Assembly: GCA_964442185.1 (NCBI GenBank) | Contig: CAYTWT010000293.1 | Location: 17,902 to 81,901, forward strand | DNA length: 64,000 bases | Direction of reading: 5' to 3' | Source of the DNA: an uncultured Acidobacteriota bacterium | GTDB lineage: Bacteria > Acidobacteriota > Vicinamibacteria > Fen-336 | In this document: one piece after another, positions 5,700-64,000 of the stretch | How the letters are laid out: each line of letters opens with the position of its first letter | Position numbering within the stretch: position 1 is the first letter of the stretch | Program-made: the position numbers and the translations under genes | The notes under the pieces: model-generated | The model's database searches: none | What the model saw: the letters and a program-made list of their open reading frames with translations, nothing else | Told to the model about the DNA's origin: nothing

Positions 5700-6740
5700 A
5701 TGGTCATCGTGATGGAGAAGGCCGCCAGCGAGGAACAGGTCCAGAAGGTCATCGAGTCGCTCGTCGCGGCGGGCTACGACGTGCACCGCTCGACTGGAGT
5801 CAGCCACACGGTCCTCGGCGCGGTGGGCACGCCTAGCCGCGTCGTCGACCCGAGCTCGCTCGAGATGTTGCCGGGGGTTCGCGAGGTCGTGAAGATCTCG
5901 GAGCCCTACAAGCTAGTGGGGCGCACCTTCAAGCGCGAAGATACAGTCGTGAACGTGTCGGGTACCCTGTTGGGCGGCCGCGAGGTGGTCGTGATGGCCG
6001 GGCCCTGCTCCGTCGAGTCGCGCGAGCAAGTGGGGAGGGTCGCGAAGGCGGTCCAGTCCGCGGGCGCACGTGTCTTGCGCGGCGGCGCCTTCAAGCCGCG
6101 AACCTCGCCCTACGCGTTTCAGGGTCACGGCGAGCAAGCCCTGCTCTGGATGCGCGAGGCGGCCGACGCGAACGGCCTCACGGTGATCAGCGAAGTGATG
6201 GACCCTCGCGCGCTCGAGATGATGTTGCGCTACGTCGACTGTCTCCAGGTCGGGGCGCGCAACATGCAGAACTTCGACCTGCTGAAGGAGCTGGGTAGAG
6301 TGCGCCGGCCCGTGCTGCTGAAGCGCGGCCTCTCGGCCACGATCGAGGAGTGGCTGCTGTCGGCCGAGTACATGCTTGCCGGCGGCAACCTGCAGATCAT
6401 TCTCTGTGAGCGCGGGATCAGGACTTTCGAGAGCGCCACGCGCAACACCCTCGACATCTCGGCGATCCCGGTGGTCAAGAAGCGAAGCCATCTGCCGATC
6501 GTCGTCGACCCGAGCCATGGAACCGGCCGGCGCGATATGGTGATCCCGATGGCCCGGGCGGCAATCGCCGCGGGCGCCGATGGCCTGCTGATCGAGGTCC
6601 ACAACGATCCCGACCGGGCGCTTTCCGACGGCGCCCAGAGTCTCTATCCTGAGCAGTTCGAGGCGCTGATGGGGGAGCTGCGCGTGATCGCGCCGGTGCT
6701 CGGCCGGAGCCTGCCACTGGCACGCGCTCTCACATCGTGA
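5700..6740 (+). CDS. 3-deoxy-7-phosphoheptulonate (DAHP) synthase, type I-beta with N-terminal ferredoxin-like regulatory domain
   Basis: N-terminal ~70 aa regulatory domain then NVSGTLLGG...VVMAGPCSVES...KPRTSPY catalytic core as in Thermotoga/Bacillus DAHPS. Confidence 0.85.
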   Translation: MVIVMEKAASEEQVQKVIESLVAAGYDVHRSTGVSHTVLGAVGTPSRVVDPSSLEMLPGVREVVKISEPYKLVGRTFKREDTVVNVSGTLLGGREVVVMAGPCSVESREQVGRVAKAVQSAGARVLRGGAFKPRTSPYAFQGHGEQALLWMREAADANGLTVISEVMDPRALEMMLRYVDCLQVGARNMQNFDLLKELGRVRRPVLLKRGLSATIEEWLLSAEYMLAGGNLQIILCERGIRTFESATRNTLDISAIPVVKKRSHLPIVVDPSHGTGRRDMVIPMARAAIAAGADGLLIEVHNDPDRALSDGAQSLYPEQFEALMGELRVIAPVLGRSLPLARALTS

Positions 6741-7507
6741 GCGAGGCCGCCATAGTCGTAGAGGGCCTCACCAAGGTCTTCAAGGAAAAGACCGCGGTCG
6801 ATCGCCTCTCGTTTCGGGTGGCACGCGGGTGCTTCTTCGGTTTTCTCGGACCCAACGGCGCGGGCAAGAGCACGACGATCAAGATGCTCACCGGCCTGCT
6901 GCGGCCGACCTCGGGAGACGCCGTCATCGAGGGCCTTCGGCTCTCGCAGAACCTGCTCGGCGTGAAAGGCCTGATCGGCGTCCTGCCCGAGGAGCTACCG
7001 CTCTACGAGCGCCTCACGGGCGAGGAGTATCTGCACTTCGCCGGCCGCATGTACGGGCTGGGCCGGGCCGAGGTTCGGCGGCGGAGCGAGGAACTGCTGG
7101 AGTTTCTGTCGCTCGAGGGCGATCGCCGCAAGCTGCTCCTTGACTACTCGCAGGGCATGAAGAAGAAGGCAGCCCTGGCCGCGGCCCTCATCCACAATCC
7201 GCGGGTGCTCTTCCTCGACGAGCCCTTGAATGGCATCGATCCGATCTCGGGCCGCGTGGTGACTGACCTGCTCCGGCGCATGGCCCAGAAGGGCGTCACG
7301 CTGTTCTTCACCACCCACGCCCTCGACGTCGCCGAGCGGCTGTGCGACGAGGTGGCTGTAATCGACCACGGGCGGATCGTGGCCCAGGGGACGCTCGATG
7401 AGATCCGAGCGCAGCGCCAGGTCGAGGGTGGCGCCAGCCTCGAAGACGTGTTTCTGAAGCTGGTGGCGGCTGACGTGCGGAGGGATGACCTCTCGTGGCT
7501 CGGCTGA
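6737..7507 (+). CDS. ABC transporter ATP-binding protein (ABC-2 / exporter type)
   Basis: Walker A GPNGAGKST, ABC signature and Walker B FLDEP; start overlaps DAHPS stop. Confidence 0.85.
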   Translation: MSEAAIVVEGLTKVFKEKTAVDRLSFRVARGCFFGFLGPNGAGKSTTIKMLTGLLRPTSGDAVIEGLRLSQNLLGVKGLIGVLPEELPLYERLTGEEYLHFAGRMYGLGRAEVRRRSEELLEFLSLEGDRRKLLLDYSQGMKKKAALAAALIHNPRVLFLDEPLNGIDPISGRVVTDLLRRMAQKGVTLFFTTHALDVAERLCDEVAVIDHGRIVAQGTLDEIRAQRQVEGGASLEDVFLKLVAADVRRDDLSWLG

Positions 7508-51861: not shown

Positions 51862-52449
51862 CTATTTGGCTGCGGCGAGGTCGAGGGACCAGCTCTTGTC
51901 GCCCCACGCCATCGTCATCGTCGCACCGACGCCGGCGGGCGCCAGCTTGATCGTGAACAGCTCAGCCGCCGGGGTGGTCGTCCCGGCCTTCATCGCCGCT
52001 CGTGCCACTTCGTTTGCCAGGATGTTGGAATAGCCCTCTAGGTGCGGCCACGGCGCATTCGCGAGATTGGCCGGGGCCTTGTCCCAGAGCTTGATGAGCG
52101 CAATTCCCGGGTCGGTGTTGAGGACGAGCGACCAGTCGCCCTGCGCGGGTGCTTGCACGTAGACGGAGTACTTGCCGGCCGGCAGCTTCTTGCCGCCGAT
52201 CGTCACTGCGCCCTCGGACGTGAGTGTGGTGACCTGGTCGACGCCAGCGCGCCAGATGCGATCCTCTGGGAGCTGGGCGATCAGGCTGTCGAGCGTACGG
52301 CCCTTGAGCGACGGCCGGCCATATTCGATCGACAGCTTCTTGCCGCCGACGCTCGCGGAAACGGTCTCGCGGGGCGCGGGTGCGTCTTGTGCGAAGGCCG
52401 CGGTGCTCAGTGCCAGAGCCGCGGCCATGGTTGCGAAACGAGTGCGCAT
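51862..52449 (-). CDS. Secreted DUF2911-family protein
   Basis: Signal peptide MRTRFATMAAALALSTAAFAQ; GGKKLPAGKYSVYV...WSLVLN DUF2911 pattern. Confidence 0.75.
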   Translation of the reverse strand: MRTRFATMAAALALSTAAFAQDAPAPRETVSASVGGKKLSIEYGRPSLKGRTLDSLIAQLPEDRIWRAGVDQVTTLTSEGAVTIGGKKLPAGKYSVYVQAPAQGDWSLVLNTDPGIALIKLWDKAPANLANAPWPHLEGYSNILANEVARAAMKAGTTTPAAELFTIKLAPAGVGATMTMAWGDKSWSLDLAAAK

Positions 52450-52483
52450 GGATCCACTACCTCCTTGGAAAACGAACGACCCC

Positions 52484-53953
52484 CTACGAATCGAGTGCCT
52501 TCTTGACCAACGTGTTCACGAGCCGCGGGTCTGCCTTCCCGCCCATTCTCCGCATTACCTGGCCCACGAACCAGCCAAGCGTGCTGGCCTTGCCGCCCTT
52601 GTAGACAGCCACCTGATCCGGACTCGCGGCCAACACCTCGGCGACCGTTGCCTCGATCGTTCCTGCGTCGGAGACTTGAAGCAACCCCTCGCGCTCCACG
52701 ATTGCCTGCGGACTCTCGCTGCTCTCCCAAGCGCGTTCGAAGACTCCCTTCGCGATCGTGCGGCTGATGCCGCCCGCATCGACCAGCCGGATCAACTCCG
52801 CGAGCTGGGCCGGCTTCAACGCGATATCCACAGCCGTGTGAGCGTCGGCCTTCAGTTTGCGCAGGACCTCGGTCATGACCCAGTTCGAGGCGGCCTTGGG
52901 GCTGCGGCTGTCTCTCGCGACGGCCTCGAAGTAGTCGGCCACCGAGCGGGACGCCGTCAGCACCCCCGCGTCGTACTCCGGGAGGCCGTACTCCGCCACG
53001 AAGCGGTGCCGCCTCGCCGCAGGCAGCTCGGGAAGCGACGCGCGCACTTCGGCCTGCCAGGCGCGGCTCACGACGAGCGGGGGTAGGTCCGGCTCCGGGA
53101 AGTAGCGGTAGTCGTGGGCCTCTTCCTTCGAACGCATCGAGACCGTCTCCCCGCGATCGGCGTTCCACAGCCGCGTCTCCTGGACGACGCGCGCGCCCGA
53201 GTCGACCACGGCTGCCTGCCTCGCGATCTCGTGCGCGATGGCGCGCTCAACGTTGCGAAACGAGTTCAGATTCTTGATCTCGGCCCGCGTGCCGAGCGCC
53301 TGGGCGCCCCGCGGACGGATCGAGACGTTGGCATCGCAGCGCAGCGAGCCCTCCTCCATGTTGCCGTCGGAAACCTCGGCGTAGACCAGGATCGAGCGGA
53401 GGGCCGCCAGATACTCGTGAGCCTCGGCAGGGCTGCGCAGCTCCGGGTCAGAGACAATCTCGATCAGCGGCACGCCGCTGCGGTTGAAGTCGACGCCGCT
53501 CTTCTCGTCGGACCACGCAAAGCCTTCGTGAAGCAGCTTGCCCGCGTCCTCCTCGATGTGGATGCGCTCGACGCGGATCGGGCGAGGCAAGTCGCCCGAG
53601 GCGATCTCGAGCTTGCCCCCGGTCGCGAGCGGCCGCTGGTACTGCGAGATCTGATAACCCTTCGGCAGGTCTGGGTAGAAATAGTTCTTGCGTTCGAAGA
53701 TCGAGGTCTCGTGGACGGTGCACTGCGTCGCAAGCGCCGCCCGCACCGCCAGCGTCACGGCGTGACGATTCAGGACCGGCAGGGCGCCTGGCAGGCCGAG
53801 ACACACCGGGCAGACATTGGCGTTGGGCACATGGCCGAAGCGGTTAAGACAGCCGCAGAACAGCTTGGTCTTCGTCAGGAGCTGGCAGTGGACTTCGAGC
53901 CCGATCACCGGCTCGTACTTCGCAAGGACATCCTCGCGGGCCGCGCTCGCCAT
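52484..53953 (-). CDS. gatB: Asp-tRNA(Asn)/Glu-tRNA(Gln) amidotransferase subunit B
   Basis: YEPVIGLEVHCQL...KLFCGC GatB N-terminus and full-length conservation. Confidence 0.92.
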   Translation of the reverse strand: MASAAREDVLAKYEPVIGLEVHCQLLTKTKLFCGCLNRFGHVPNANVCPVCLGLPGALPVLNRHAVTLAVRAALATQCTVHETSIFERKNYFYPDLPKGYQISQYQRPLATGGKLEIASGDLPRPIRVERIHIEEDAGKLLHEGFAWSDEKSGVDFNRSGVPLIEIVSDPELRSPAEAHEYLAALRSILVYAEVSDGNMEEGSLRCDANVSIRPRGAQALGTRAEIKNLNSFRNVERAIAHEIARQAAVVDSGARVVQETRLWNADRGETVSMRSKEEAHDYRYFPEPDLPPLVVSRAWQAEVRASLPELPAARRHRFVAEYGLPEYDAGVLTASRSVADYFEAVARDSRSPKAASNWVMTEVLRKLKADAHTAVDIALKPAQLAELIRLVDAGGISRTIAKGVFERAWESSESPQAIVEREGLLQVSDAGTIEATVAEVLAASPDQVAVYKGGKASTLGWFVGQVMRRMGGKADPRLVNTLVKKALDS

Positions 53954-54161
53954 GGGGACGCGATTCTAGCACTGGGGAGGCGTGCCTTGACCGCGCCGGG
54001 CGCGCCGCGTAACGTCGTGCCATGCGAGACTCGCCGCTCACGTACAGCCCGCTGAACCTGGCCACGGGGGCCGCACGCGCGCAGCCGACGCCGCTGGTCC
54101 TCGGCTTTTCGCAACCACACGGCGAAGCTGCCGCGAGCAGCTTCTTCGGGCGGATCCGCCA

Positions 54162-55825: not shown

Positions 55826-55847
55826 GGAGCTTGTAGACGGTGCCGCC

Positions 55848-56867
55848 ATGAACGTCATCGACCTGCGCTCGGATACCGTGACCAAGCCGACGCCCGCCAT
55901 GCGCAAGGCGATGGCCGAGGCCGAGGTCGGGGACGATCTTTACGGCGAGGATCCGACCGTCAATCGCCTTCAGGCGCAGGCGGCGCAACTCCTGGGCTTC
56001 GAGGCCGCGCTCTTCGTCCCGACGGGCACGATGGGGAACGAGATTGCGATCGCGCTGCTCACGACGCCCGGCCAGCTGGTGCTCGCCGACGAGCGCAGCC
56101 ACGTGATCGAGTACGAGCTCGCGGGTATGGCTGCGCACTCGGGCGTAATGCCGCGCGTCGTCCGCACGCAGGACGGGAAGCTGACGCCCGAACTGCTGCG
56201 CTCCGCACAGAAACCAGCGGCTCCCAATCGCTCCGCGATCGGGATGGTCGTTCTCGAGAACACCCACAACCTCGCGGGTGGCAGCGTCTCGAACGTCGCC
56301 GAGATGCAGGCGGCGATCGCGGTGGCCCACGAGCTCGGCTGGCGCGTCCACGTGGACGGCGCCCGCTTGTGGAACGCGGCCGTGGCCCTGGCTGTCGAGC
56401 CGAAGGCCCTCGTGTCCGGCGCGGACACGCTGATGGTGGCGCTGTCTAAGGGCCTGTGTTGCCCCGTGGGCTCGTTGCTGCTCGGCTCCGGAGAACTCGT
56501 GGCTAGCGCCCGTCGTCACCGGCAGCTCTTCGGCGGCGGCATGCGTCAGAGCGGCATCCTCGCGGCGGCGGGCCTGGTGGCCCTGGATACGCTGCTCCCG
56601 CGCCTGGCCGAGGATCATGCGCACGCGCGGCTTCTGACCGATGCCATGATGGGCCATGCCGGCGTTCGCGCTCTTCCGGCGCAGACCAACATCGCGGTTG
56701 CCACGCTCGAGGCCGGGAACGCCCCCGAGATCGCGGCGGCCCTCAAGGGTCGGGGCGTGCTCGGGAGCGCGATGGACCAGGTGACGCTGCGTCTGGTCAC
56801 GCATCGCGACGTGTCGCGCAGCGACTGCGAGCGCGCGGCGGAGATCCTCCGGGAGGTCCTGGCATGA
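55848..56867 (+). CDS. ltaE: Low-specificity L-threonine aldolase
   Basis: Start ATG MNVIDLRSDTVTKPT; PLP-Lys region ALSKGLCCPVGS. Confidence 0.85.
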   Translation: MNVIDLRSDTVTKPTPAMRKAMAEAEVGDDLYGEDPTVNRLQAQAAQLLGFEAALFVPTGTMGNEIAIALLTTPGQLVLADERSHVIEYELAGMAAHSGVMPRVVRTQDGKLTPELLRSAQKPAAPNRSAIGMVVLENTHNLAGGSVSNVAEMQAAIAVAHELGWRVHVDGARLWNAAVALAVEPKALVSGADTLMVALSKGLCCPVGSLLLGSGELVASARRHRQLFGGGMRQSGILAAAGLVALDTLLPRLAEDHAHARLLTDAMMGHAGVRALPAQTNIAVATLEAGNAPEIAAALKGRGVLGSAMDQVTLRLVTHRDVSRSDCERAAEILREVLA

Positions 56868-58609
56868 AACGTATGGTGGTTGTTGGTCTCGCCGCGATCT
56901 TCGATGCGGGCGCGGCGCGGGCGGCGGAGCCGGTTATCCTGCGCGATGTGGCCGTGCCGATGCGCGATGGCGTCGTGCTCCGAGCCGACGTGCTTCGGCC
57001 CCAGACCACGGGCCCGTTCGCCGTCCTCGTCTACCGCACGCCGTACGACAAGAAATCGTCGCAGGAAAGCTACACGACGTTCGCGCACGCGGTCGAGCGC
57101 GGCTACGCGGTGGTGATCCAGGACGTGCGCGGACGCTATGCCTCGGCCGGCGAGTATGCGGCCTATCGGCACGAGGGCCAGGACGGCTTCGACACGATCG
57201 AGTGGGCCGCGAAGCAGCCCTGGTCGAACGGCGACGTGGGAACTTTCGGGCTTTCGTATCCTGGCGCCGTGCAGTGGCTCGCCGCGATGGAGTCGCCGCC
57301 GCACCTCAAGGCGATGGCGCCGGCCATGACGTTCGCCACGCCGCGCAACTTTTTCCTCTCCGGCGGGGTGTTCGACCTCTCCTGGATCAGCTGGATCTGG
57401 AACAACATCGCGCCCGACACGCGTGTTCGCAAGAACCTGCCCGGCCCACGCACCGGTGAAGAGGCCGAGGCGGAATGGGTGAAGCGCCGCGACGACTTCC
57501 GCCGACGCCTGCCGCTGAATGCGCTCCACGAGCTGCGTGACACGGCGCCCTACTACTTCGAATGGATGGAGCATCCCGCGGCCGATCCGTGGTGGGACTG
57601 GGCCGAGCTGCGCGGCAAGTACTCCCGCGTCAAGGCTGCGGTGCTGAACCTCTCGGGCTGGCACGACGAGGCCTACGGTCCCGACGGCGCCATCACCAAC
57701 TTCCGTGGCTTGCTCGAGTCGCGCAAGGGCGAAGCCGATCCGCGAGCGCGGCTCGTGATGGGACCGTGGGTGCACGGCGTCGGGGCGACGAAGGCCGAGA
57801 AGGCGGGTGATCGAGCATTCGGTCCCGCGGCGGCGATCGACTACGACGAGACGCTGCTGCGCTTCATGGACCGTTACCTGCGCGGGATCGACAACGGACT
57901 CGACAAGGAGAAGCGGGCCCGTGTCTTCGTGATGGGCGAGAACGCCTGGCACGAAGGCGACGGCTGGCCGTTGGCGCCCACGCGCCGCCTCACGTTCTTT
58001 CTCTCGCGTGACGGAGCCGGTCCGGGCCGGCTCGTGACCGAGGCCCCGTCGGTTCACGGCGGCGCCACGTCATTCGTCTCGGACCCGGCGAATCCGGTCA
58101 CCGATCCGTTCGCGAACAGCGTGGGCGCTCACGACTACCGCGAGCTTCCGAAACGTGCCGATACCGCGAGCTTCGAGACAGAGCCCTTCGAGGCCGACGT
58201 CACCGTGATCGGCGCGATGCAGGCGGAGATCTGCATCTCCGCCGACGCGCCCGACACCGACTTGTGGGTCAAGGTCTACGACGTCGCGCCCGACGGCACC
58301 GCTTTCAACCTGATGAGCCCGGGCCTCGACGTGCAGCGCGCCAGCACACGCGACGGCAGCCTGACGCCGCGGCTCCTGAAGAAGGGCGAGGTCGTCGTGC
58401 TCGAGTTCGCCAATCTCTATACGGGCAACCGTTTCTTGAAAGGCCATCGGCTTCGCGTCGTCCTCACGCCCGAGTTCTTCCCGCACTTCTCGCGCAACCT
58501 GCACAGCGGCGAGCGCGAGACGACTTCGGCCGACATGCGCAAGGCCAGGATCACGATTCATCACGACTCGCGCCACCCGTCGCGCCTCGTGCTGCCGGTG
58601 CTCCCGTAG
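56864..58609 (+). CDS. Secreted CocE/NonD-family hydrolase (S15 X-Pro dipeptidyl-peptidase-like)
   Basis: Signal peptide; nucleophile GLSYPG; C-terminal beta-sandwich; ATGA overlap with ltaE. Confidence 0.8.
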   Translation: MKRMVVVGLAAIFDAGAARAAEPVILRDVAVPMRDGVVLRADVLRPQTTGPFAVLVYRTPYDKKSSQESYTTFAHAVERGYAVVIQDVRGRYASAGEYAAYRHEGQDGFDTIEWAAKQPWSNGDVGTFGLSYPGAVQWLAAMESPPHLKAMAPAMTFATPRNFFLSGGVFDLSWISWIWNNIAPDTRVRKNLPGPRTGEEAEAEWVKRRDDFRRRLPLNALHELRDTAPYYFEWMEHPAADPWWDWAELRGKYSRVKAAVLNLSGWHDEAYGPDGAITNFRGLLESRKGEADPRARLVMGPWVHGVGATKAEKAGDRAFGPAAAIDYDETLLRFMDRYLRGIDNGLDKEKRARVFVMGENAWHEGDGWPLAPTRRLTFFLSRDGAGPGRLVTEAPSVHGGATSFVSDPANPVTDPFANSVGAHDYRELPKRADTASFETEPFEADVTVIGAMQAEICISADAPDTDLWVKVYDVAPDGTAFNLMSPGLDVQRASTRDGSLTPRLLKKGEVVVLEFANLYTGNRFLKGHRLRVVLTPEFFPHFSRNLHSGERETTSADMRKARITIHHDSRHPSRLVLPVLP

Positions 58610-58613
58610 CCGC

Positions 58614-61418
58614 ATGACGCTTGTTCACCGGCTGCTGCTGCCCGTAGCGCTCGCCGCTCCAGCCGCGTGGGCGCAGGACGATCCCGAGGCCCGCCTCAAG
58701 GCGACGCTCTCGGCCGAGCGGATCGGCGAATTTCACGCCCGTCTGACGCGCGAGCCTCACGTCGCCGGCACGCCGGAGAGCCGGGGGGTCGCGGCTGAGA
58801 TCGAGCGGACGCTCGCGACGATGGGCTTGGCGACGGAGGTCCGCAGCTACGACGTATACCTGTCGTATCCGAAGCAGATCGCGGTCCGCCTGACCCGGCC
58901 CGAGAGGCGCGCGCTTTCCGTCACCGAGCCCGTGGACCCGCGCGATCCGGACACGGCGAACCCCAGGCTCACGCCGGGCTTCGTGGCCTATTCGGCGTCC
59001 GGTCACGTGACCGCTCCCGTCGTCTACGTGAACTACGGCCTGCCCGCCGACCACGAGGCGCTCGAGGCCAAGGGCGTCACCGTGCGCGGCGCCATCGCGC
59101 TCGCCCGCTACGGCAAGGTGCACCGCGCCGTGAAGGTGCACACGGCCGAGACGCGGGGCGCCGCGGGCATCCTGATCTACAGCGACCCCGCCGACGATGG
59201 CGCGGCGCAGGGCGAGGTCTGGCCGAAGGGACCGTGGCGCGCGCCGACGTTCCTGCAACGCGGCAACGCGAAGTACAGCTGGTTCTGGCACGGCGATCCG
59301 CTGACGCCCGGTGTCGCGGCGACCGCTGAGGCGAAGCGGCTCGACCCGAGGAGCGTCCCTACCCTTCCGAAGATTCCTGCGGCCGTGCTCTCCGCGGCTG
59401 CGGCGCAGGAGATCCTTTCGCGGCTGCGCGGCGGCGGCCCTGGTCCCGCGGTCGTCGAGATGGACGTCGCGATGACGAACGGCCTGCGGCCGATCTATGA
59501 CGTGATCGCGCGGATCGACGGCAAGGAAGAACCCGATCGCGAGGTGATCCTCGGCACGCACCATGACGCGTGGACCTTCGGCGGCGTCGATCCCGGCAGC
59601 GCGGCAGCGTCGGTCCTGGAACTGGCGCGCGCGTTTTCTGAGATGCGCAAGAGCGGCTGGCAGCCACGGCGCTCGATCGTGTTCGCATTCTGGGATGCGG
59701 AGGAGTACGGCCTGATCGGCTCCACAGAGTATGCCGAGGACCGCGGGGCCGAGCTACGTGAGCGCGCCGTCACGTACATCAACACCGACTACTACCTCGC
59801 GGGCCGGCTCGAAGCGGGTGGGACGGCGTCGCTGCGCGATCTGATGGACTCGGTCGCGGGTGAGAAGATCGAGCTAGCACCCCTCGGCAGCGGCGCCGAC
59901 TTCGTGCCGTTTCAGGATCACCTAGGCCTGCCGGCACTGTCGATCGAGTACGGGATCCCCGGGAGCTACGGCTCGTACCACTCAGCCTACGACACGCGGC
60001 AGTGGATGCAGAGATACGGCGACCCAGGCTGGGCCTACGGCGTGAAGCTCGCCGACACGCTCGGTCGCACGGTGTTGCGCCTGGCCTCGGCTCCGGTGCT
60101 GCCATTTCAGTTCACGCGCACGGCCGAGGCGCTCACCGGCTACCTCGATCAGCTCGAGGCAGTGAACCGTGCCGCGGGTTCCAGGCTCGCCGAGCTTGGC
60201 TTCGGATCCACGCGCGCGAAGCTCACGGCGCTGGCCGAAGCGGCCCGCGCTTTCGAGGCGTCGTCCTCGCGAGGCGCCAGCGTTACGTCGTCTGCGCTGC
60301 GCGAGATCAACGACCGCTTGCTGCGCGCCGAGACCGGCTTTGCTCGACCCGCGGGCGAGTCGTGGTACCGGCACGTGGTCTACGGCTGGGACATCTACTC
60401 GCTCTACAGCGGCGACACGCTGCCAACCCTGCGCGCCGCGATCGCAAAGGCGGACACGCCGGCGTTCGCCCGCGAACGCGAGCGGCTGGAGCAGGCGATC
60501 ACCGCTGCGACGAGCGAACTCACGGCCGCTACAGCCCTTGCGTCCGCGCAAACGAGCGAGCCTTGGTGCGACCAGTTGCCGCGGCCAGCCTACGCGTCGC
60601 TCGAGCGCGTGCCGGTTTCAGACGCCTGGTTCCAGGTCTACCGGGTGTCTGCTGGTGTCTTTGCGATCTACGAGCCGTACCAGTTCCAGGAGGTCATCTC
60701 GTATCTGATCGTGGGCTCCGAGCAGGCCATCTTGTTCGACACCGGTATGGGCATCGGCCGACTTCGCTCGGTAGTGAGCGATCTCACCAATCTTCCGCTC
60801 CGCGTCGTCAACTCCCACACGCACTTCGATCACGTGGGCGCAAACGCGGACTTCGACACGGTTCTCGCCATGGACACTGCCTTCACGCGCCAGAGCGCGG
60901 AAGGCCTGCCCCACGAAGCGGTGCGAGGCGAAGTCGCGGCGGAGGCGCTGTGTCGCGCGCTCCCGGAAGGCGTCACGGCCGAGTTGTATCGGAGCCGGCC
61001 TTTCAAGATCAGCGGACGCTTGAAGGATGGCGATGTGCTCGACCTCGGCGGCCGGAGTCTCGAGGTCCTGAGCGTGCCGGGCCACACGCCTGACGCCATC
61101 GCGCTACTGGACCGAGCCGGCGGCCTGCTGTGGACGGGAGATACGTTCTACCTAGGTCCGATCTGGCTGTTTGTCCCCGAGACCGACTTCGAGGCCTACG
61201 CGGCCTCCGTAGAGCGCCTTGCGAAGCTGGTCCCGGAGCTCCGGCTGCTCCTGCCGGCGCACAACACTCCGACGGCCGAGCCCCGTCGCCTCGAGCAACT
61301 GAAGGCAGCCGTCGCCGCGATCCGCGCGGGGACGGCGAAGTCGCACCCAGGGCCGGAGGATCGCGTCGAGTTCGAGTTCGACGGCTTCTCGATCTTGCTC
61401 AAGCCGGGCGCACGCTAA
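58614..61418 (+). CDS. Secreted PSMA/glutamate-carboxypeptidase-II-like M28 peptidase (PA + M28 + TFR-dimer domains) fused to a C-terminal metallo-beta-lactamase-fold domain
   Basis: Signal peptide MTLVHRLLLPVALAAPAAWA; M28 zinc ligands (HHDAW, DAEEYGLIGS); C-terminal ~290 aa with HTHFDHVG, GHTPD, TGDTF, PAHN MBL motifs in same uninterrupted frame. Confidence 0.8.
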   Translation: MTLVHRLLLPVALAAPAAWAQDDPEARLKATLSAERIGEFHARLTREPHVAGTPESRGVAAEIERTLATMGLATEVRSYDVYLSYPKQIAVRLTRPERRALSVTEPVDPRDPDTANPRLTPGFVAYSASGHVTAPVVYVNYGLPADHEALEAKGVTVRGAIALARYGKVHRAVKVHTAETRGAAGILIYSDPADDGAAQGEVWPKGPWRAPTFLQRGNAKYSWFWHGDPLTPGVAATAEAKRLDPRSVPTLPKIPAAVLSAAAAQEILSRLRGGGPGPAVVEMDVAMTNGLRPIYDVIARIDGKEEPDREVILGTHHDAWTFGGVDPGSAAASVLELARAFSEMRKSGWQPRRSIVFAFWDAEEYGLIGSTEYAEDRGAELRERAVTYINTDYYLAGRLEAGGTASLRDLMDSVAGEKIELAPLGSGADFVPFQDHLGLPALSIEYGIPGSYGSYHSAYDTRQWMQRYGDPGWAYGVKLADTLGRTVLRLASAPVLPFQFTRTAEALTGYLDQLEAVNRAAGSRLAELGFGSTRAKLTALAEAARAFEASSSRGASVTSSALREINDRLLRAETGFARPAGESWYRHVVYGWDIYSLYSGDTLPTLRAAIAKADTPAFARERERLEQAITAATSELTAATALASAQTSEPWCDQLPRPAYASLERVPVSDAWFQVYRVSAGVFAIYEPYQFQEVISYLIVGSEQAILFDTGMGIGRLRSVVSDLTNLPLRVVNSHTHFDHVGANADFDTVLAMDTAFTRQSAEGLPHEAVRGEVAAEALCRALPEGVTAELYRSRPFKISGRLKDGDVLDLGGRSLEVLSVPGHTPDAIALLDRAGGLLWTGDTFYLGPIWLFVPETDFEAYAASVERLAKLVPELRLLLPAHNTPTAEPRRLEQLKAAVAAIRAGTAKSHPGPEDRVEFEFDGFSILLKPGAR

Positions 61419-61452: not shown

Positions 61453-62892
61453 ATGAAGCGGGATCTCGGCGCGCTGACCGGGCGTGAGCACGACGTGCTC
61501 GTGATCGGCGGCGGCATTCACGGTGCCTTCGCGGCCTGGGACGCCGCGCAGCGCGGGCTTCTGACGGCACTGGTCGAGGCCGAGGACTTCGGCGCGGGCA
61601 CCTCCTGGAACAGCCTGAAGACGATTCACGGCGGCCTGCGCTACCTGCAGTCTCTCGACCTGCCGCGCATGCGCGAATCGATTCGTGAACGGCGGACGCT
61701 GCTGGCCATCGCGCCCGAGCTGGTGCGGCCGCTGGCCTTCGTGGTTCCGACCTACGGTCACGGAATCAAGGGCCGCGAAGCCTTGGCGCTCGCGCTTCGC
61801 ATCAACGACCTCGTGAGCGCCGATCGCAACGCCGGCCTAGCTCCAGCCCAGTGGCTCGCCCCGAGCCGGAGCCTGTCGCGGGACGAGTTCCTGCGCCTCG
61901 TGCCGGGAGCGTCGGCGGAGCGGCTGACCGGCGGGGGAATCTGGATCGATGCGCAGGTGGAGAGCAGCGAGCGGCTGGTCGTTGGCCTGCTGCACGCGGC
62001 GGCGGAGTGCGGCGCAGCACTCGCGAACCACGCGCGCGTCACGCGGGCGCTCCGCCGCGATGGTCGCATCGTTGGCGTTTCGGTGCTCGACGCCTTGGGC
62101 GGCGGCGCCCTCGAGGTTCGGGCGCGCCAGGTTCTGAACGCCGCTGGTCCGGGGATGGACGACGTGCTCGCCAGCCTGGGCGTGCGGCGCACGCCGGTGC
62201 CGCTGCTTCGCGCCTTGAACCTCGTCCTGAAGCGTTCCGTCGCCAAGGGTCACGCGATCGGCGCCTTGAGCTCAGGCCGCTATTTGTTCCTCGTCCCCTG
62301 GCGCGAGCGCGCGATGATCGGCACGGATTACGTGCCCGCCAGTGGAGCGAGCGATCCCGCCGAGGCACGCCGCTTTCTCGAAGAAGCCTCACGCGCGTTT
62401 CCCTGGGCGAAGCTCGGCATGGAGGACGTGGCGCTGGTCCATCGGGGCCGAGTGCCGGGCCTCGATGCGAAGCGCCTGGCGGTGCGCCACCTGCTGCTCG
62501 ACCACGCGGCCGAAGGCGCGCCGGGCCTGAGCTCCGTGCAGGGCGTCAAGTACACGACCGCTCGAGCCGTGGCCGAAGAGGCGATCGATCGGCTCTGCCA
62601 CAAGCTCGGTCAGGCGCGGCCCTCGCGCACGGCCGCGACACGACTCCTCCACGCGCGCGCTCTCGAAGGCGCCCTTCCGACGCGGGCCCTGCAGGCCGTT
62701 CGCGAGGAGATGGCGCTGACCCTCCCCGACGCTGTACTCCGGCGCCTCGATCTCGGGACCGCTGGCCCGGCCGCCGCGGCGGACGTCGAGATCGTGGCGC
62801 AGACGCTGGCCACGGAACAAGGCTGGGACCAGGCACGCGTCGAGGCCGAGAAGCAGGCGCTGACCGACGCCGTGGCGCGCACCGTGCTATGA
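61453..62892 (+). CDS. glpD: FAD-dependent glycerol-3-phosphate dehydrogenase
   Basis: DVLVIGGGIHGAFAAWDAAQRGL FAD Rossmann, GGLRYL motif. Confidence 0.85.
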   Translation: MKRDLGALTGREHDVLVIGGGIHGAFAAWDAAQRGLLTALVEAEDFGAGTSWNSLKTIHGGLRYLQSLDLPRMRESIRERRTLLAIAPELVRPLAFVVPTYGHGIKGREALALALRINDLVSADRNAGLAPAQWLAPSRSLSRDEFLRLVPGASAERLTGGGIWIDAQVESSERLVVGLLHAAAECGAALANHARVTRALRRDGRIVGVSVLDALGGGALEVRARQVLNAAGPGMDDVLASLGVRRTPVPLLRALNLVLKRSVAKGHAIGALSSGRYLFLVPWRERAMIGTDYVPASGASDPAEARRFLEEASRAFPWAKLGMEDVALVHRGRVPGLDAKRLAVRHLLLDHAAEGAPGLSSVQGVKYTTARAVAEEAIDRLCHKLGQARPSRTAATRLLHARALEGALPTRALQAVREEMALTLPDAVLRRLDLGTAGPAAAADVEIVAQTLATEQGWDQARVEAEKQALTDAVARTVL

Positions 62893-62925
62893 GCGCCCCG
62901 GGAAACTTGCTATCGTGAGCTTTGC

Positions 62926-64000
62926 ATGAGCCCCCGCGAGAAGGCCCGGCCCCAGCCGCTTCGCGAGGCACAGGACCGGACGATCCGCGCGCTCATGTCG
63001 CTGGTCGACGACCTGACGGTCGAGGTCGACGAAGAAGGCTTGCTCACCTCGACGCTCGAGCACGTGGTGCGGACGCTCGCTGTGACCGGGGGGCTCACGC
63101 TGCTGGCGGACTCGGAGCGCGTGCTCCGGGCGGCGGCCCAGTTCCGCGCGCCCAGCCACGACATGGCAGCGACCATGGAGCTGGCGCGGGCTTCGCTCGA
63201 TCGGGAGCGTCCGCTCGTGAAGGAAAGCGACGGCGGGGGCTGGCTCGCCGCCGCTCCGCTCATAACCAAGCAGCGCCAGCTCGGCGTGCTCACGATTCAC
63301 GACGCAACCGAAGACAGCATGGCCCCGGACCTGGAGCTGCTCGAGGCCCTGGGCAAGCAGATCGGCACGGGCCTCGACAATGCCCGGCTCTACGCCGAGC
63401 TGCGCGCGAGCACGACAAGGCTCGAGTTCCTGAACCGCATCTCCTCGGCGCTGACGGCGGGCATGGACCTGAAGACGGTCGTGCCGGCCTTCGCGAAAGA
63501 GATCGCGGCGCTGCAGGAATTCGACCGGCTGGCCTGCGGCTTCGTCAACGAGTCGGGGGACTACATCGAGATCACGGGCTATCCCGACGAGGCGACCTGG
63601 GGTCTGGGCAGCGTGCTGCCCGTGGTCGGCAGCGGGCCCGGCTCGGTCGTCCTCAACAACCGGGCGATCCTGCAGCACGACCTGCTCCACGAGCATCGCT
63701 TCATCGAAGACATGCGCCTGCTCGAGGAGGGGATCCGCTCCTACGTGATCCTGCCGCTCAACGCGCGTGGCCGCAGCATCGGCGTGCTGGCGCTCGGCTC
63801 CACGCGCGCGGAGGCGTACGGCGACGCGACGCTCGCGCACGTTCAGCCGCTCGCCGACTCGGTCGCGCTCGCCTTCGAGAACGTGCGGCTGTTCCAGAAG
63901 ACACGCGAGCTCTCGATCACCGACGAGGTGACGCCGCTCTACAACTTCCGTTTCTTCCACCAGATCCTCGATCGCGAGCTGAAGCTCGTGGACCGCTACA
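62926..64000 (+). CDS. GAF-GAF-GGDEF protein, 5' part (continues past window end)
   Basis: Open frame from ATG MSPREKARPQP to window end (not in ORF track because no stop); two GAF-like units then GGDEF-domain start TPLYNFRFFHQILDRELK. Confidence 0.65.
   Translation, partial: MSPREKARPQPLREAQDRTIRALMSLVDDLTVEVDEEGLLTSTLEHVVRTLAVTGGLTLLADSERVLRAAAQFRAPSHDMAATMELARASLDRERPLVKESDGGGWLAAAPLITKQRQLGVLTIHDATEDSMAPDLELLEALGKQIGTGLDNARLYAELRASTTRLEFLNRISSALTAGMDLKTVVPAFAKEIAALQEFDRLACGFVNESGDYIEITGYPDEATWGLGSVLPVVGSGPGSVVLNNRAILQHDLLHEHRFIEDMRLLEEGIRSYVILPLNARGRSIGVLALGSTRAEAYGDATLAHVQPLADSVALAFENVRLFQKTRELSITDEVTPLYNFRFFHQILDRELKLVDRY

Follow-up and report, generated by a model that had tools for sequence, protein, structure and literature searches.

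A PSMA-like M28B peptidase and a metallo-beta-lactamase-fold hydrolase encoded by one open reading frame in an uncultured Acidobacteriota bacterium

The window, i.e. the whole stretch of 64 000 nucleotides that was analysed, comes from a contig of an uncultured Acidobacteriota bacterium. The frame at 58614–61418 was translated and contained no internal stop. Its 934-aa product was searched against Pfam and four domains were found, each above its gathering cut-off. The ORF list, the translation and Pfam agree with the earlier note on this DNA, which had described a single frame with PA, M28, TFR_dimer and metallo-beta-lactamase (MBL) domains in this order, a set of motifs and two complete catalytic centres. 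An identical protein (P0241, 100% identity) was recovered from an NCBI contig. The features of the locus are as follows (aa positions refer to the fusion protein).

55848–56867, + strand: threonine-aldolase-like PLP enzyme (Beta_elim_lyase; ltaE-like), ATG at 55848; Pfam PF01212, E 8e-94
56864–58609, + strand: CocE/NonD (S15) serine hydrolase, 581 aa; Pfam Peptidase_S15 and PepX_C, predicted N-terminal signal peptide, GLSYPG nucleophile motif
58614–61418, + strand: fusion gene, PSMA-like M28B peptidase joined to MBL-fold hydrolase; from the ORF list, ATG start, 934 aa, coordinates including the stop codon
58614–58673, + strand: putative signal peptide, aa 1–20 (ending AAWA, followed by QDD); from the translation, by eye
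59007–59210, + strand: PA (protease-associated/apical) core, aa 132–199; Pfam PF02225, E 1.7e-9, contains Arg171 (GCPII Arg210)
59502–60002, + strand: M28 di-zinc peptidase, aa 297–463; Pfam PF04389, E 3.5e-21, ligands H316, D326, E364, D392 and H456, catalytic E363
60213–60521, + strand: TFR_dimer helical domain, aa 534–636; Pfam PF04253, E 2.2e-14, contains Leu597-Tyr598 (GCPII Lys699-Tyr700)
60543–60566, + strand: fusion junction/short linker, aa 644–651 (SAQTSEPW); from alignment with standalone PSMA-like and MBL proteins
60567–61415, + strand: MBL-fold hydrolase, aa 652–934; ligands H735, H737, D739, H740, H824, D843 and H883
61453–62892, + strand: FAD-dependent oxidoreductase (DAO and DAO_C, GlpD-like); Pfam, 34 nt downstream of the fusion gene

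The peptidase motifs lie at residues 316–320 (HHDAW) and 361–370 (DAEEYGLIGS). Those of the MBL part lie at 735–742 (HTHFDHVG), 823–827 (GHTPD), 841–845 (TGDTF) and 881–884 (PAHN), and the Lactamase_B match of Pfam covers residues 696–877. The N-terminus (MTLVHRLLLPVALAAPAAWA, followed by QDD) reads by eye as a Sec signal peptide; AF2 pLDDT was below 50 at residues 1–21.

The stop codon of the ltaE-like gene overlaps the start of the CocE/NonD gene (ATGA, 56864–56867), and the CocE/NonD stop is separated from the start of the fusion gene by 4 nt. On this evidence the ltaE-like, CocE/NonD and PSMA-like genes form a translationally coupled unit. Scans for promoters and terminators found no signal that exceeded shuffled sequences. 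At orthologous loci the genes are ordered GatB, DinB, ltaE-like, CocE/NonD, PSMA-like, DAO and GGDEF. The ltaE-like gene is syntenic in L001, L002, L007 and L013 and the FAD-dependent oxidoreductase in L002, L013 and L007. The oxidoreductase has a cytoplasmic-type N-terminus with GGGIHG and probably lies outside the hydrolase module. The 'run of secreted hydrolase genes' that had been proposed for this region stands only in part, as signal peptides are absent from DinB, the threonine-aldolase-like protein and the oxidoreductase encoded downstream. In 30 of 55 loci the PSMA-like gene was immediately preceded by a CocE/NonD homologue, and in 6 the two were fused; the fused proteins include P0012, P0035 and P0111, and in the orthologous locus L007 the two are encoded as a single ORF. 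Both Acidobacteriota and Gemmatimonadota conserve this CocE/NonD and PSMA-like gene pair, often in fused form.

The peptidase part was compared with human GCPII (PSMA/FOLH1; PDB 2c6c, 2oot) and GCPIII (MEROPS M28B). The PA (apical), M28 (protease-like) and TFR_dimer (helical) domains occur in identical order (E 2.9e-87, phmmer against PDB). The zinc ligands H316, D326, E364, D392 and H456 and the general base E363 correspond to GCPII H377, D387, E425, D453, H553 and E424; the ligands and the catalytic Glu363 were invariant among 70 homologues. In the transferrin receptor the M28B zinc ligands and general base are missing. GCPII binds the C-terminal glutamate through Arg210, Asn257, Tyr552, Lys699 and Tyr700, and Lys699 holds the gamma-carboxylate of the glutamate side chain. 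In the fusion protein R171, N218, Y455 and Y598 match Arg210, Asn257, Tyr552 and Tyr700; Lys699 aligns with Leu597 (alignment to 2c6c), and the glutamate-specific S1' pocket of GCPII is therefore not reproduced. By alignment, the alpha-carboxylate clamp appears to be kept and the gamma-carboxylate ligand to be gone. Because the clamp is kept, the PSMA half is most likely a carboxypeptidase, within the di-zinc M28B exopeptidases. The gamma-glutamyl substrate suggested in the earlier note is weakened, because the residue that binds the gamma-carboxylate in GCPII is a leucine here.

Other differences from GCPII concern the ends and the loops of the protein. GCPII carries a type II membrane anchor, whereas the fusion protein is predicted to be soluble and exported, with a cleavable signal peptide. 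It is ~25 and ~30 residues shorter than GCPII at two internal sites; at these same sites the fused clade lacks ~16 and ~35 aa relative to standalone bacterial PSMA-like proteins. Past its helical domain it continues into the 283-aa MBL domain, and it would presumably form a dimer. Bacterial PSMA/GCPII homologues abound in the Acidobacteriota and Gemmatimonadota of soils. PSMA-like proteins with no MBL domain (P0006, P0010, P0016) and CocE/NonD::PSMA-like fusions (P0012, P0035, P0111) are 55–60% identical to the window protein over the peptidase part. These proteins stop at the helical domain and neither carry nor adjoin an MBL gene; the CocE/NonD fusions have their additional domain at the N-terminus and no longer contain the PSMA signal peptide.

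The C-terminal part has the alpha-beta/beta-alpha fold and the HxHxDH, H, D and H ligands of the MBL-fold superfamily (Pfam PF00753). The seven metal ligands were invariant across 118 sequences, as was Tyr846; Cys652 and Cys780 were nearly invariant and may form a disulfide in this domain. The fold model was confident. The full-length AF2 model, computed from an alignment of fused and PSMA-only sequences, reached a pTM of 0.72 with no confident inter-domain geometry; pLDDT was low in its MBL part because only 6 sequences cover that part. The solved structures SPM-1 (4bp0), YcbL (2xf4), LACTB2 (4ad9), TTHA1429 (2zo4), PqsE (2q0j) and chlorothalonil dehalogenase (6uxu) share only 14–24% identity with the domain (Foldseek TM 0.5–0.66, query-normalised). 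Compared with them, the domain carries additional strands at its N-terminus and a ~60-residue insertion that holds the second cysteine. More than 9,000 relatives of the subfamily are detectable. The domain scored 19.4 bits with the AHL lactonase model (AiiA type, NCBIfam NF045699; cut-off 375), 40 with glyoxalase II (GloB, TIGR03413; 200.8), and 57.4 and 41.4 with the SoxH-related quinoprotein-relay zinc hydrolase models (TIGR04558/TIGR04559; 300 and 280). It was also below the class B beta-lactamase cut-offs (NCBIfam bla_class_B_core, bla_subclass_B3). Since it falls below the curated AHL lactonase, glyoxalase II and class B beta-lactamase cut-offs, the MBL half can be classed, from its sequence, as a binuclear MBL-fold hydrolase of an orphan subfamily. 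Membership in the AHL lactonases or glyoxalase II, which the earlier note listed among MBL domains of this motif type, is not supported by these scores. The literature searched contained no biochemical data on this MBL subfamily or on bacterial PSMA-like (M28B) proteins.

Two substrate-specific readings bear on these features. The protein could serve quorum quenching or the catabolism of N-acyl lactones, the MBL domain acting as a lactonase on N-acyl-homoserine lactones and the PSMA-like half deacylating N-acyl-homoserine. The ligand set with a bridging Asp is common to lactonases, and the invariant Tyr lies 3 residues past this Asp (D843-x-x-Y846), a spacing that we liken to that of Asp191/Tyr194 in AiiA. 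A non-acidic P1' residue would agree with the absence of the Glu-specific Lys699, and the partners fused elsewhere to this MBL subfamily are acylase-like (C69/Ntn, amidohydrolases). We regard this reading as improbable. It is still less probable that the locus serves beta-lactam (cyclic amide) catabolism or resistance, with the lactam opened by the MBL domain and the side chain removed by either the peptidase or CocE/NonD.

The continuity of the frame was then assessed. It is common to the window and to P0001, P0002, P0003, P0004 and P0005 (68–85% identity), and in the alignment of the six fused proteins the junction differs by substitutions and in-frame indels. The linker has a higher dN/dS and carries in-frame indels in P0004 and P0005. 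The junction falls between the end of standalone PSMA-like proteins and the mature start of standalone MBL proteins (WCDxLPR). In standalone MBL homologues a signal peptide or lipobox precedes 'ERWCDxLPR'; at the junction no hydrophobic remnant of an MBL signal peptide was found. The loci L001, L002/L014 and L013 are syntenic (L013 and L014 are Acidobacteriota MAGs), and the window gene belongs with them: it is one ORF, joined where the mature MBL protein would start, in a syntenic locus. GC3 was alike in the two halves (0.864 vs 0.827). Purifying selection acts on both halves, with a dN/dS of 0.15 in the PSMA half and 0.16–0.18 in the MBL half.

A missed stop or an indel joining two genes during sequencing or assembly would be an artefact to which high-GC MAG contigs are prone, and L003 is indeed shredded by frameshifts and L014 has one in its N-terminal part. 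However, six assemblies obtained independently in different projects (NCBI, JGI, Logan) all keep one frame, selection is purifying on either side of the junction, and a read-through would have kept the MBL signal peptide and the intergenic spacer, both of which are missing. An artefact is thus extremely improbable, and the sequences argue that the single ORF is a genuine gene fusion maintained by selection. P0121, a candidate standalone MBL with 87% identity, was rejected as such: it lies on the frameshift-shredded, syntenic contig L003 and represents a broken fused gene. In the P0004/P0005 branch the MBL domain has diverged further (58–62% identity, dN/dS 0.39) than in standalone relatives (72–76% identity), and the branch is long in the NJ tree of MBL domains built for one versus two fusion events. 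For this reason a single origin of the fusion is not proven.

The architecture is rare. It was found in 6 protein clusters of a 5.8-billion-protein collection and in 2 of 185,579 species genomes, all Acidobacteriota. The nearest fused relatives have no assigned name and no description of a PSMA-like::MBL fusion was found in the literature searched, in line with the earlier note, which was not aware of this fusion as a described architecture. As the fusions are rare, functional coupling is not needed by either enzyme. Standalone exported MBLs (for example P0122, P0123, P0133 and P0137) are 71–76% identical over the whole domain and share its invariant ligands and its cysteine pair. Each is ~290–340 aa long and has a signal peptide or lipobox of its own, and their genomic contexts vary. 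Their annotations read 'glyoxylase-like metal-dependent hydrolase' or 'MBL fold metallo-hydrolase'. With these exported relatives and the predicted N-terminal signal peptide, the 'secreted bifunctional enzyme' put forward earlier is plausible. For the standalone MBL, neither neighbour clustering over 83 loci nor a Pfam survey of 117 flanking ORFs gave a conserved neighbour (top family, 5/117 neighbours), and a PSMA-like gene adjoined it in 0/83 loci. Most members of the MBL family therefore function with no peptidase attached to them or encoded next to them. Two contexts considered as clues to MBL function, RraA-like/GGACT/GlnA-like (L011, L012) and amidase/M20/CocE (L113, L121), were set aside as lineage-specific.

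The same MBL subfamily was also found fused to a C69 dipeptidase, to Amidohydro_1 (P0242) and to Amidohydro_3 (P0310), with the MBL domain C-terminal every time. The C69 dipeptidase::MBL proteins form 11 conserved clusters (P0261, P0390–P0399) in Thermoanaerobaculia. In all three types the fusion point is the mature N-terminus of the MBL domain (38–61% identity) and the partner supplies the signal peptide, as in PSMA-like::MBL, but the partner comes from other amide-hydrolase families; the fusion events are independent. In L150 an unfused Amidohydro_3 gene adjoins the MBL gene, and P0405 combines three hydrolase domains in one protein. Together with these, the PSMA-like::MBL fusion hints that the MBL family works with peptide-cleaving enzymes.

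Alternatively, the two halves could act on unrelated substrates, the MBL domain riding on the signal peptide and promoter of the peptidase and persisting because it is harmless. The highly variable contexts of standalone MBLs, with no conserved partner, and the confinement of PSMA-like::MBL to a small clade fit such a neutral or expression-level fusion, and adjacent exported hydrolase genes fuse readily in these phyla (CocE::PSMA in 6 of 30 adjacent pairs; P0405). Nevertheless, amide-bond hydrolases have captured this subfamily at least four times (M28B, C69, Amidohydro_1, Amidohydro_3), no unrelated class was found as N-terminal partner among the long proteins checked, and purifying selection is equal on both halves. 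We consider a neutral fusion unlikely.

Taking the locus as a whole, we think it likely that the gene is a genuine, selected fusion of two exported metallohydrolases, both with intact centres, acting beside the CocE/NonD hydrolase in peptide scavenging. In one Acidobacteriota lineage, a standalone gene for a periplasmic or secreted MBL would have come to adjoin the PSMA-like operon gene on its downstream side; the stop codon, the intergenic spacer and the MBL signal peptide would then have been lost. The product would be exported through its single N-terminal signal peptide and is most likely a periplasmic two-step hydrolase of a peptide-scavenging operon. With the exported CocE/NonD serine hydrolase, it would scavenge peptides or peptide-like compounds. 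The MBL domain might open or cleave an ester, thioester, lactone or cyclic amide and so generate or remove a blocked carboxyl end. The tethered exopeptidase, probably a carboxypeptidase requiring a free C-terminal carboxylate and lacking the lysine that gives GCPII its glutamate specificity, could then cut the neighbouring amide bond. The best specific hypothesis would be that a ring or ester is opened first and an amide bond is cleaved afterwards.

Gene fusions are among the few clues to function that sequence offers. Three linked ones are present here: the repeatedly fused CocE/NonD and PSMA-like pair, the PSMA-like::MBL protein, and the independent occurrence of the MBL domain on C69 and two amidohydrolase families. 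Together they lead to a testable hypothesis, in which the activities follow one another on small peptide-like substrates that require a free carboxyl end, and they make the fusion protein a compact candidate for expression. If the coupling is true, this would be a new two-step extracellular catabolic route; if it is false, the locus exemplifies the easy fusion of adjacent exported hydrolase genes in these phyla. A broader reading, which we hold to be doubtful, is that the MBL subfamily serves terminal amide hydrolases as a dedicated 'unmasking' partner. The lactone, lactam or ester in N-acylated or C-terminally blocked amino-acid or peptide derivatives would be opened by the MBL domain, and the tethered carboxypeptidase, dipeptidase or aminoacylase would finish the reaction. 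If this were so, PSMA-like::MBL and CocE/NonD would make up a three-activity catabolic machine in soil Acidobacteriota and give a first functional handle on bacterial PSMA homologues. Candidate substrates under the 'unmasking' reading include AHL-like signals, beta-lactam-like compounds, depsipeptides and peptide esters.

The fusion gene was translated as one uninterrupted frame, in which four Pfam domains were found above the gathering threshold. It is the third gene of a packed same-strand unit.

Genes of the unit and domains of the fusion protein
55848-56867, + strand: threonine-aldolase-like PLP enzyme gene, stop overlapping the next start (ATGA)
56864-58609, + strand: exported CocE/NonD S15 hydrolase gene, with signal peptide and GLSYPG motif
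58614-61418, + strand: fusion gene, after a 4-nt spacer; ATG start, 934 codons, no internal stop
34 nt after the fusion gene: GlpD-like FAD oxidoreductase gene
aa 132-199 of the fusion protein: PA
aa 297-463: Peptidase_M28
aa 534-636: TFR_dimer
aa 696-877: Lactamase_B

The Pfam domains agreed with the order PA, M28, TFR_dimer and metallo-beta-lactamase fold (MBL) read in one frame in the earlier note, and all the peptidase and MBL motifs quoted there were found in the translated ORF. Its observation of a one-ORF fusion was confirmed; its interpretation was borne out in part only. A database protein (P0241), from an NCBI contig, was 100% identical to the window fusion protein. Judged by eye, the protein starts with what resembles a Sec signal peptide (MTLVHRLLLPVALAAPAAWA|QDD). 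The gene is predicted to encode one exported chain in which both metallohydrolase centres are intact and which is maintained by selection.

Five further proteins with the four domains in one chain (P0001-P0005) were recovered from about 5.8 billion protein clusters. They are 85, 85, 81, 69 and 68% identical, respectively, to the window protein and come from NCBI, JGI and Logan assemblies. In the alignment of these proteins with the window, the junction is in frame throughout, yet variable: the window reads ...ELTAATALASAQTSEPWCDQLPRP, and P0004 and P0005 have differing residues plus two in-frame two-codon gaps. The linker starts exactly where standalone PSMA-like relatives end, and the standalone MBL relatives (unfused, 71-76% identity) carry a signal peptide or lipobox followed by 'ERWCDxLPR'. 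From these ends, the peptidase's final helix has been linked to the MBL protein at the latter's mature N-terminus. The junction has no stop codon, no spacer and no second signal peptide; a missed stop or frameshift is disfavoured because either would have preserved them. A sequencing or assembly artefact joining two genes is extremely improbable, since the frame is kept in proteins from five other assemblies and the junction lacks the MBL signal peptide and spacer. In dN/dS (Nei-Gojobori, window against the related loci L001 or L013) the peptidase half gave 0.15 and the MBL half 0.16-0.18, and GC3 was 0.864 versus 0.827; these values indicate neither decay nor recent foreign insertion.

P0121 was considered as a standalone MBL protein (87% identity) and rejected: its syntenic contig, L003, is shredded by frameshifts, and P0121 represents the fused gene in a broken state. 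L003 comes from a long-read metagenome assembly; almost all genes of its syntenic stretch (L003:198-13757) are fragmented in this way, and the metallophosphoesterase gene is separated from DinB by an inserted reverse transcriptase gene of a group II intron (RVT_1 + GIIM). In MAG RBC046 (L014:10001-10299 = L002:9702-10000), the PSMA half has a break in its N-terminal part, with about 19 codons absent and the frame shifted, and the called P0005 therefore begins at the equivalent of residue 136, without a signal peptide. The break reflects either a faulty assembly or the onset of pseudogenisation.

The peptidase half matched human glutamate carboxypeptidase II (GCPII) with an E-value of 2.9e-87 (phmmer, PDB sequences). 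The GCPII zinc ligands H377, D387, E425, D453 and H553 correspond to H316, D326, E364, D392 and H456, the catalytic base E424 to E363, and the substrate-binding residues R210, N257, Y552 and Y700 to R171, N218, Y455 and Y598. K699, which binds the glutamate gamma-carboxylate, is L597 in the fusion protein. None of the zinc ligands, nor the catalytic Glu, R171, N218 or Y455, varies across 70 homologues; Y598 is nearly invariant (at least 90%). In the structural literature on GCPII, the alpha-carboxylate of the C-terminal residue is held by Arg210, Tyr552 and Tyr700, and the glutamate side chain by Asn257 and Lys699. By alignment, the clamp residues for a free C-terminal carboxylate are kept. 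The peptidase half is predicted to be an active di-zinc exopeptidase that would not be glutamate-specific, and is probably a carboxypeptidase. Two segments present in all the nearest standalone PSMA-like proteins are missing from the fused clade: one of about 16 aa past the PA domain (aa 273/274, nt ~59432), and one of about 35 aa past D392 (aa 416/417, nt ~59861), which includes '...YDxWR...'. GCPII is longer by 25 and 30 residues at these two regions. Fusions of CocE with PSMA keep the ~16-aa segment and have a shortened ~35-aa segment.

The MBL half belongs to a family of 9,342 representatives (E<=1e-3, 50%-clustered library), with more than 6,000 matches in a word-indexed search; members are mainly about 300 aa long. 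An alignment of 118 MBL sequences shows no variation at H735, H737, H740, H824, D843 and H883 (numbered on the full protein), nor at Tyr846, three residues past the bridging Asp; D739, Cys652 and Cys780 are nearly invariant. The two cysteines would fit an extracytoplasmic disulfide. Values in the structure table were 22.0 for SPM-1, 21.9 for SPS-1, 21.4 for BcII, 21.3 for CcrA, 21.2 for Sfh-I, 21.1 for chlorothalonil dehalogenase, 20.5 for YcbL, 20.2 for LACTB2, 19.9 for TTHA1429, 19.6 for PqsE, 15-16 for glyoxalase II and 13-15 for AHL lactonases. Query-normalised Foldseek TM was just 0.5-0.66, and every profile-to-PDB match was below 58 bits. The domain fell far below every curated NCBIfam cut-off examined.

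NCBIfam scores of the MBL domain
AiiA (AHL lactonase): 19.4 bits, cut-off 375
GloB (glyoxalase II): 40 bits, cut-off 200.8
bla_class_B_core: 44 bits, cut-off 100
bla_subclass_B3: 32.7 bits, cut-off 240
SoxH-related: 57.4 bits, cut-off 300

On these scores the domain falls in an orphan MBL subfamily; its binuclear site is complete, and homology points to no particular reaction. The AHL lactonase or glyoxalase II type proposed earlier was not upheld by the AiiA and GloB scores. Readings specific to AHL lactones or to beta-lactams are unlikely; both failed their family tests (AiiA, and the two bla models, respectively). At L011:7289-9658 and L012:4665-7606, a standalone MBL gene (71-72% identity to the window domain) lies between RraA-like and GGACT (gamma-glutamyl cyclotransferase-like) genes, with a glutamine-synthetase-like gene nearby; this context belongs to one lineage and is absent from the other loci.

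One genome per species (185,579 species) was scanned and relatives were encoded at 67 loci, of which only two, L013 (Acidobacteriota MAG_453_bin-14) and L014 (uncultured Acidobacteria RBC046), covered both halves. Fusion counts are lower bounds, given that the cluster containing the window protein has a 194-aa fragment as its representative and that the genome scan used only two peptide patterns. By tblastn of the MBL domain against 79 loci, MBL adjoined a PSMA-like gene solely where fused, with no unfused neighbours, and none of 83 standalone MBL loci had a PSMA-like gene nearby. The combination, which the earlier note did not know as a described architecture, is a rare, unnamed, lineage-restricted variant assembled from two known superfamilies. 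The peptidase halves of all fused proteins have common synteny and both derived deletions, which favours a single fusion event. The MBL domains of P0004 and P0005 are 58-62% identical to that of the window, versus up to 72-76% for standalone MBL; fused MBL domains were non-monophyletic in the NJ tree, and dN/dS was 0.39 on the P0004/P0005 branch. One fusion with faster evolution, domain replacement and a second fusion are alternative explanations.

Of 55 species-representative loci with sufficient upstream DNA (L016-L070), 30 have a CocE/NonD gene immediately upstream of the PSMA-like gene and in the same orientation; in six (L017, L018, L019, L022, L023, L025) the two genes form one ORF. The pair occurs in Acidobacteriota, Vicinamibacterales and Gemmatimonadales. 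At the orthologous locus of a more distant lineage (L007/L008), the two are one 1,242-aa ORF without MBL. CocE::PSMA fusions were also among the top protein matches (P0012, P0024, P0026, P0035, P0111), with the signal peptide at the CocE end. From this synteny, the conserved functional module is CocE/NonD plus PSMA-like, and MBL is a lineage-specific addition. The order GatB, metallophosphoesterase, DinB, aldolase-like/CocE-NonD/fusion unit, DAO and GGDEF is kept in L001, L002 and L013. The run of secreted hydrolases described earlier is borne out only in part: the CocE/NonD enzyme is exported and the N-terminus of the metallophosphoesterase is hydrophobic, but neither DinB nor the aldolase nor the oxidoreductase is exported. 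The operon is oriented to peptides and amino acids.

Among the best 150 of the 9,342 MBL representatives, several long proteins had a C-terminal MBL domain; N-terminal parts were assigned by Pfam.

N-terminal partners of the MBL domain, with MBL identity to that of the window
P0242: Amidohydro_1, 61%
P0261: C69 dipeptidase, 47%
P0310: Amidohydro_3, 38%
P0005: PSMA-like M28B, 58%

In all four the junction is the mature MBL N-terminus (WCD, WWN or WWD), and in complete fusion proteins the partner bears the signal peptide. C69::MBL is a conserved clade of 11 clusters (P0261, P0390-P0399; 67-75% identity), one named Thermoanaerobaculia C69 dipeptidase; P0242 and P0310 are one representative each. 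At L150:6037-10184, Amidohydro_3 adjoins MBL unfused, with a second amidohydrolase downstream. A caution against reading too much into these fusions is that standalone MBL genes had no conserved neighbour family (commonest, 5 of 117 immediate neighbours). P0405 (1108 aa) joins Amidohydro_3, C69 and Amidohydro_1 in one chain, and in P0254 (504 aa) an MBL of the window-domain family precedes LprI and MliC lysozyme-inhibitor domains.

The fusion protein is likely a genuine exported enzyme with two functions, part of a unit for peptide scavenging. From the partner classes (carboxypeptidase, dipeptidase, aminoacylase-type amidohydrolases), we infer that each of the four independent MBL partners either liberates a C-terminal amino acid or works in some other way on substrates whose carboxyl end is free. 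The usual targets of MBL-fold hydrolases are esters, thioesters, lactones or cyclic amides, and their cleavage produces a carboxylate. The MBL domain might thus uncover a blocked or cyclised carboxyl end, after which the tethered peptidase would cleave the neighbouring amide; the CocE/NonD enzyme would act at the opposite end or on ester bonds. This sequential unmasking is graded the most economical coupling and is put forward tentatively. The main rival, a neutral fusion of two independent periplasmic enzymes, is considered rather unlikely. The main value of the fusion is as a Rosetta-stone clue tying together bacterial PSMA homologues, CocE/NonD hydrolases and the orphan exported MBL subfamily.

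A minus-strand Amidohydro_1 gene (430 aa) lies between the DinB and ltaE-like genes at L001:5886-7178, L002:5544-6836 and L013:~6680-7030; in the window this gap is just 22 nt (55826-55847), without the amidohydrolase of the sister genomes. Three long window ORFs had no Pfam match at E<=1e-3: 52172-53086 (+), 53114-54055 (+) and 62887-63960 (-). The two plus-strand ORFs overlap GatB on the minus strand (52484-53953) and are unlikely to be genuine genes.
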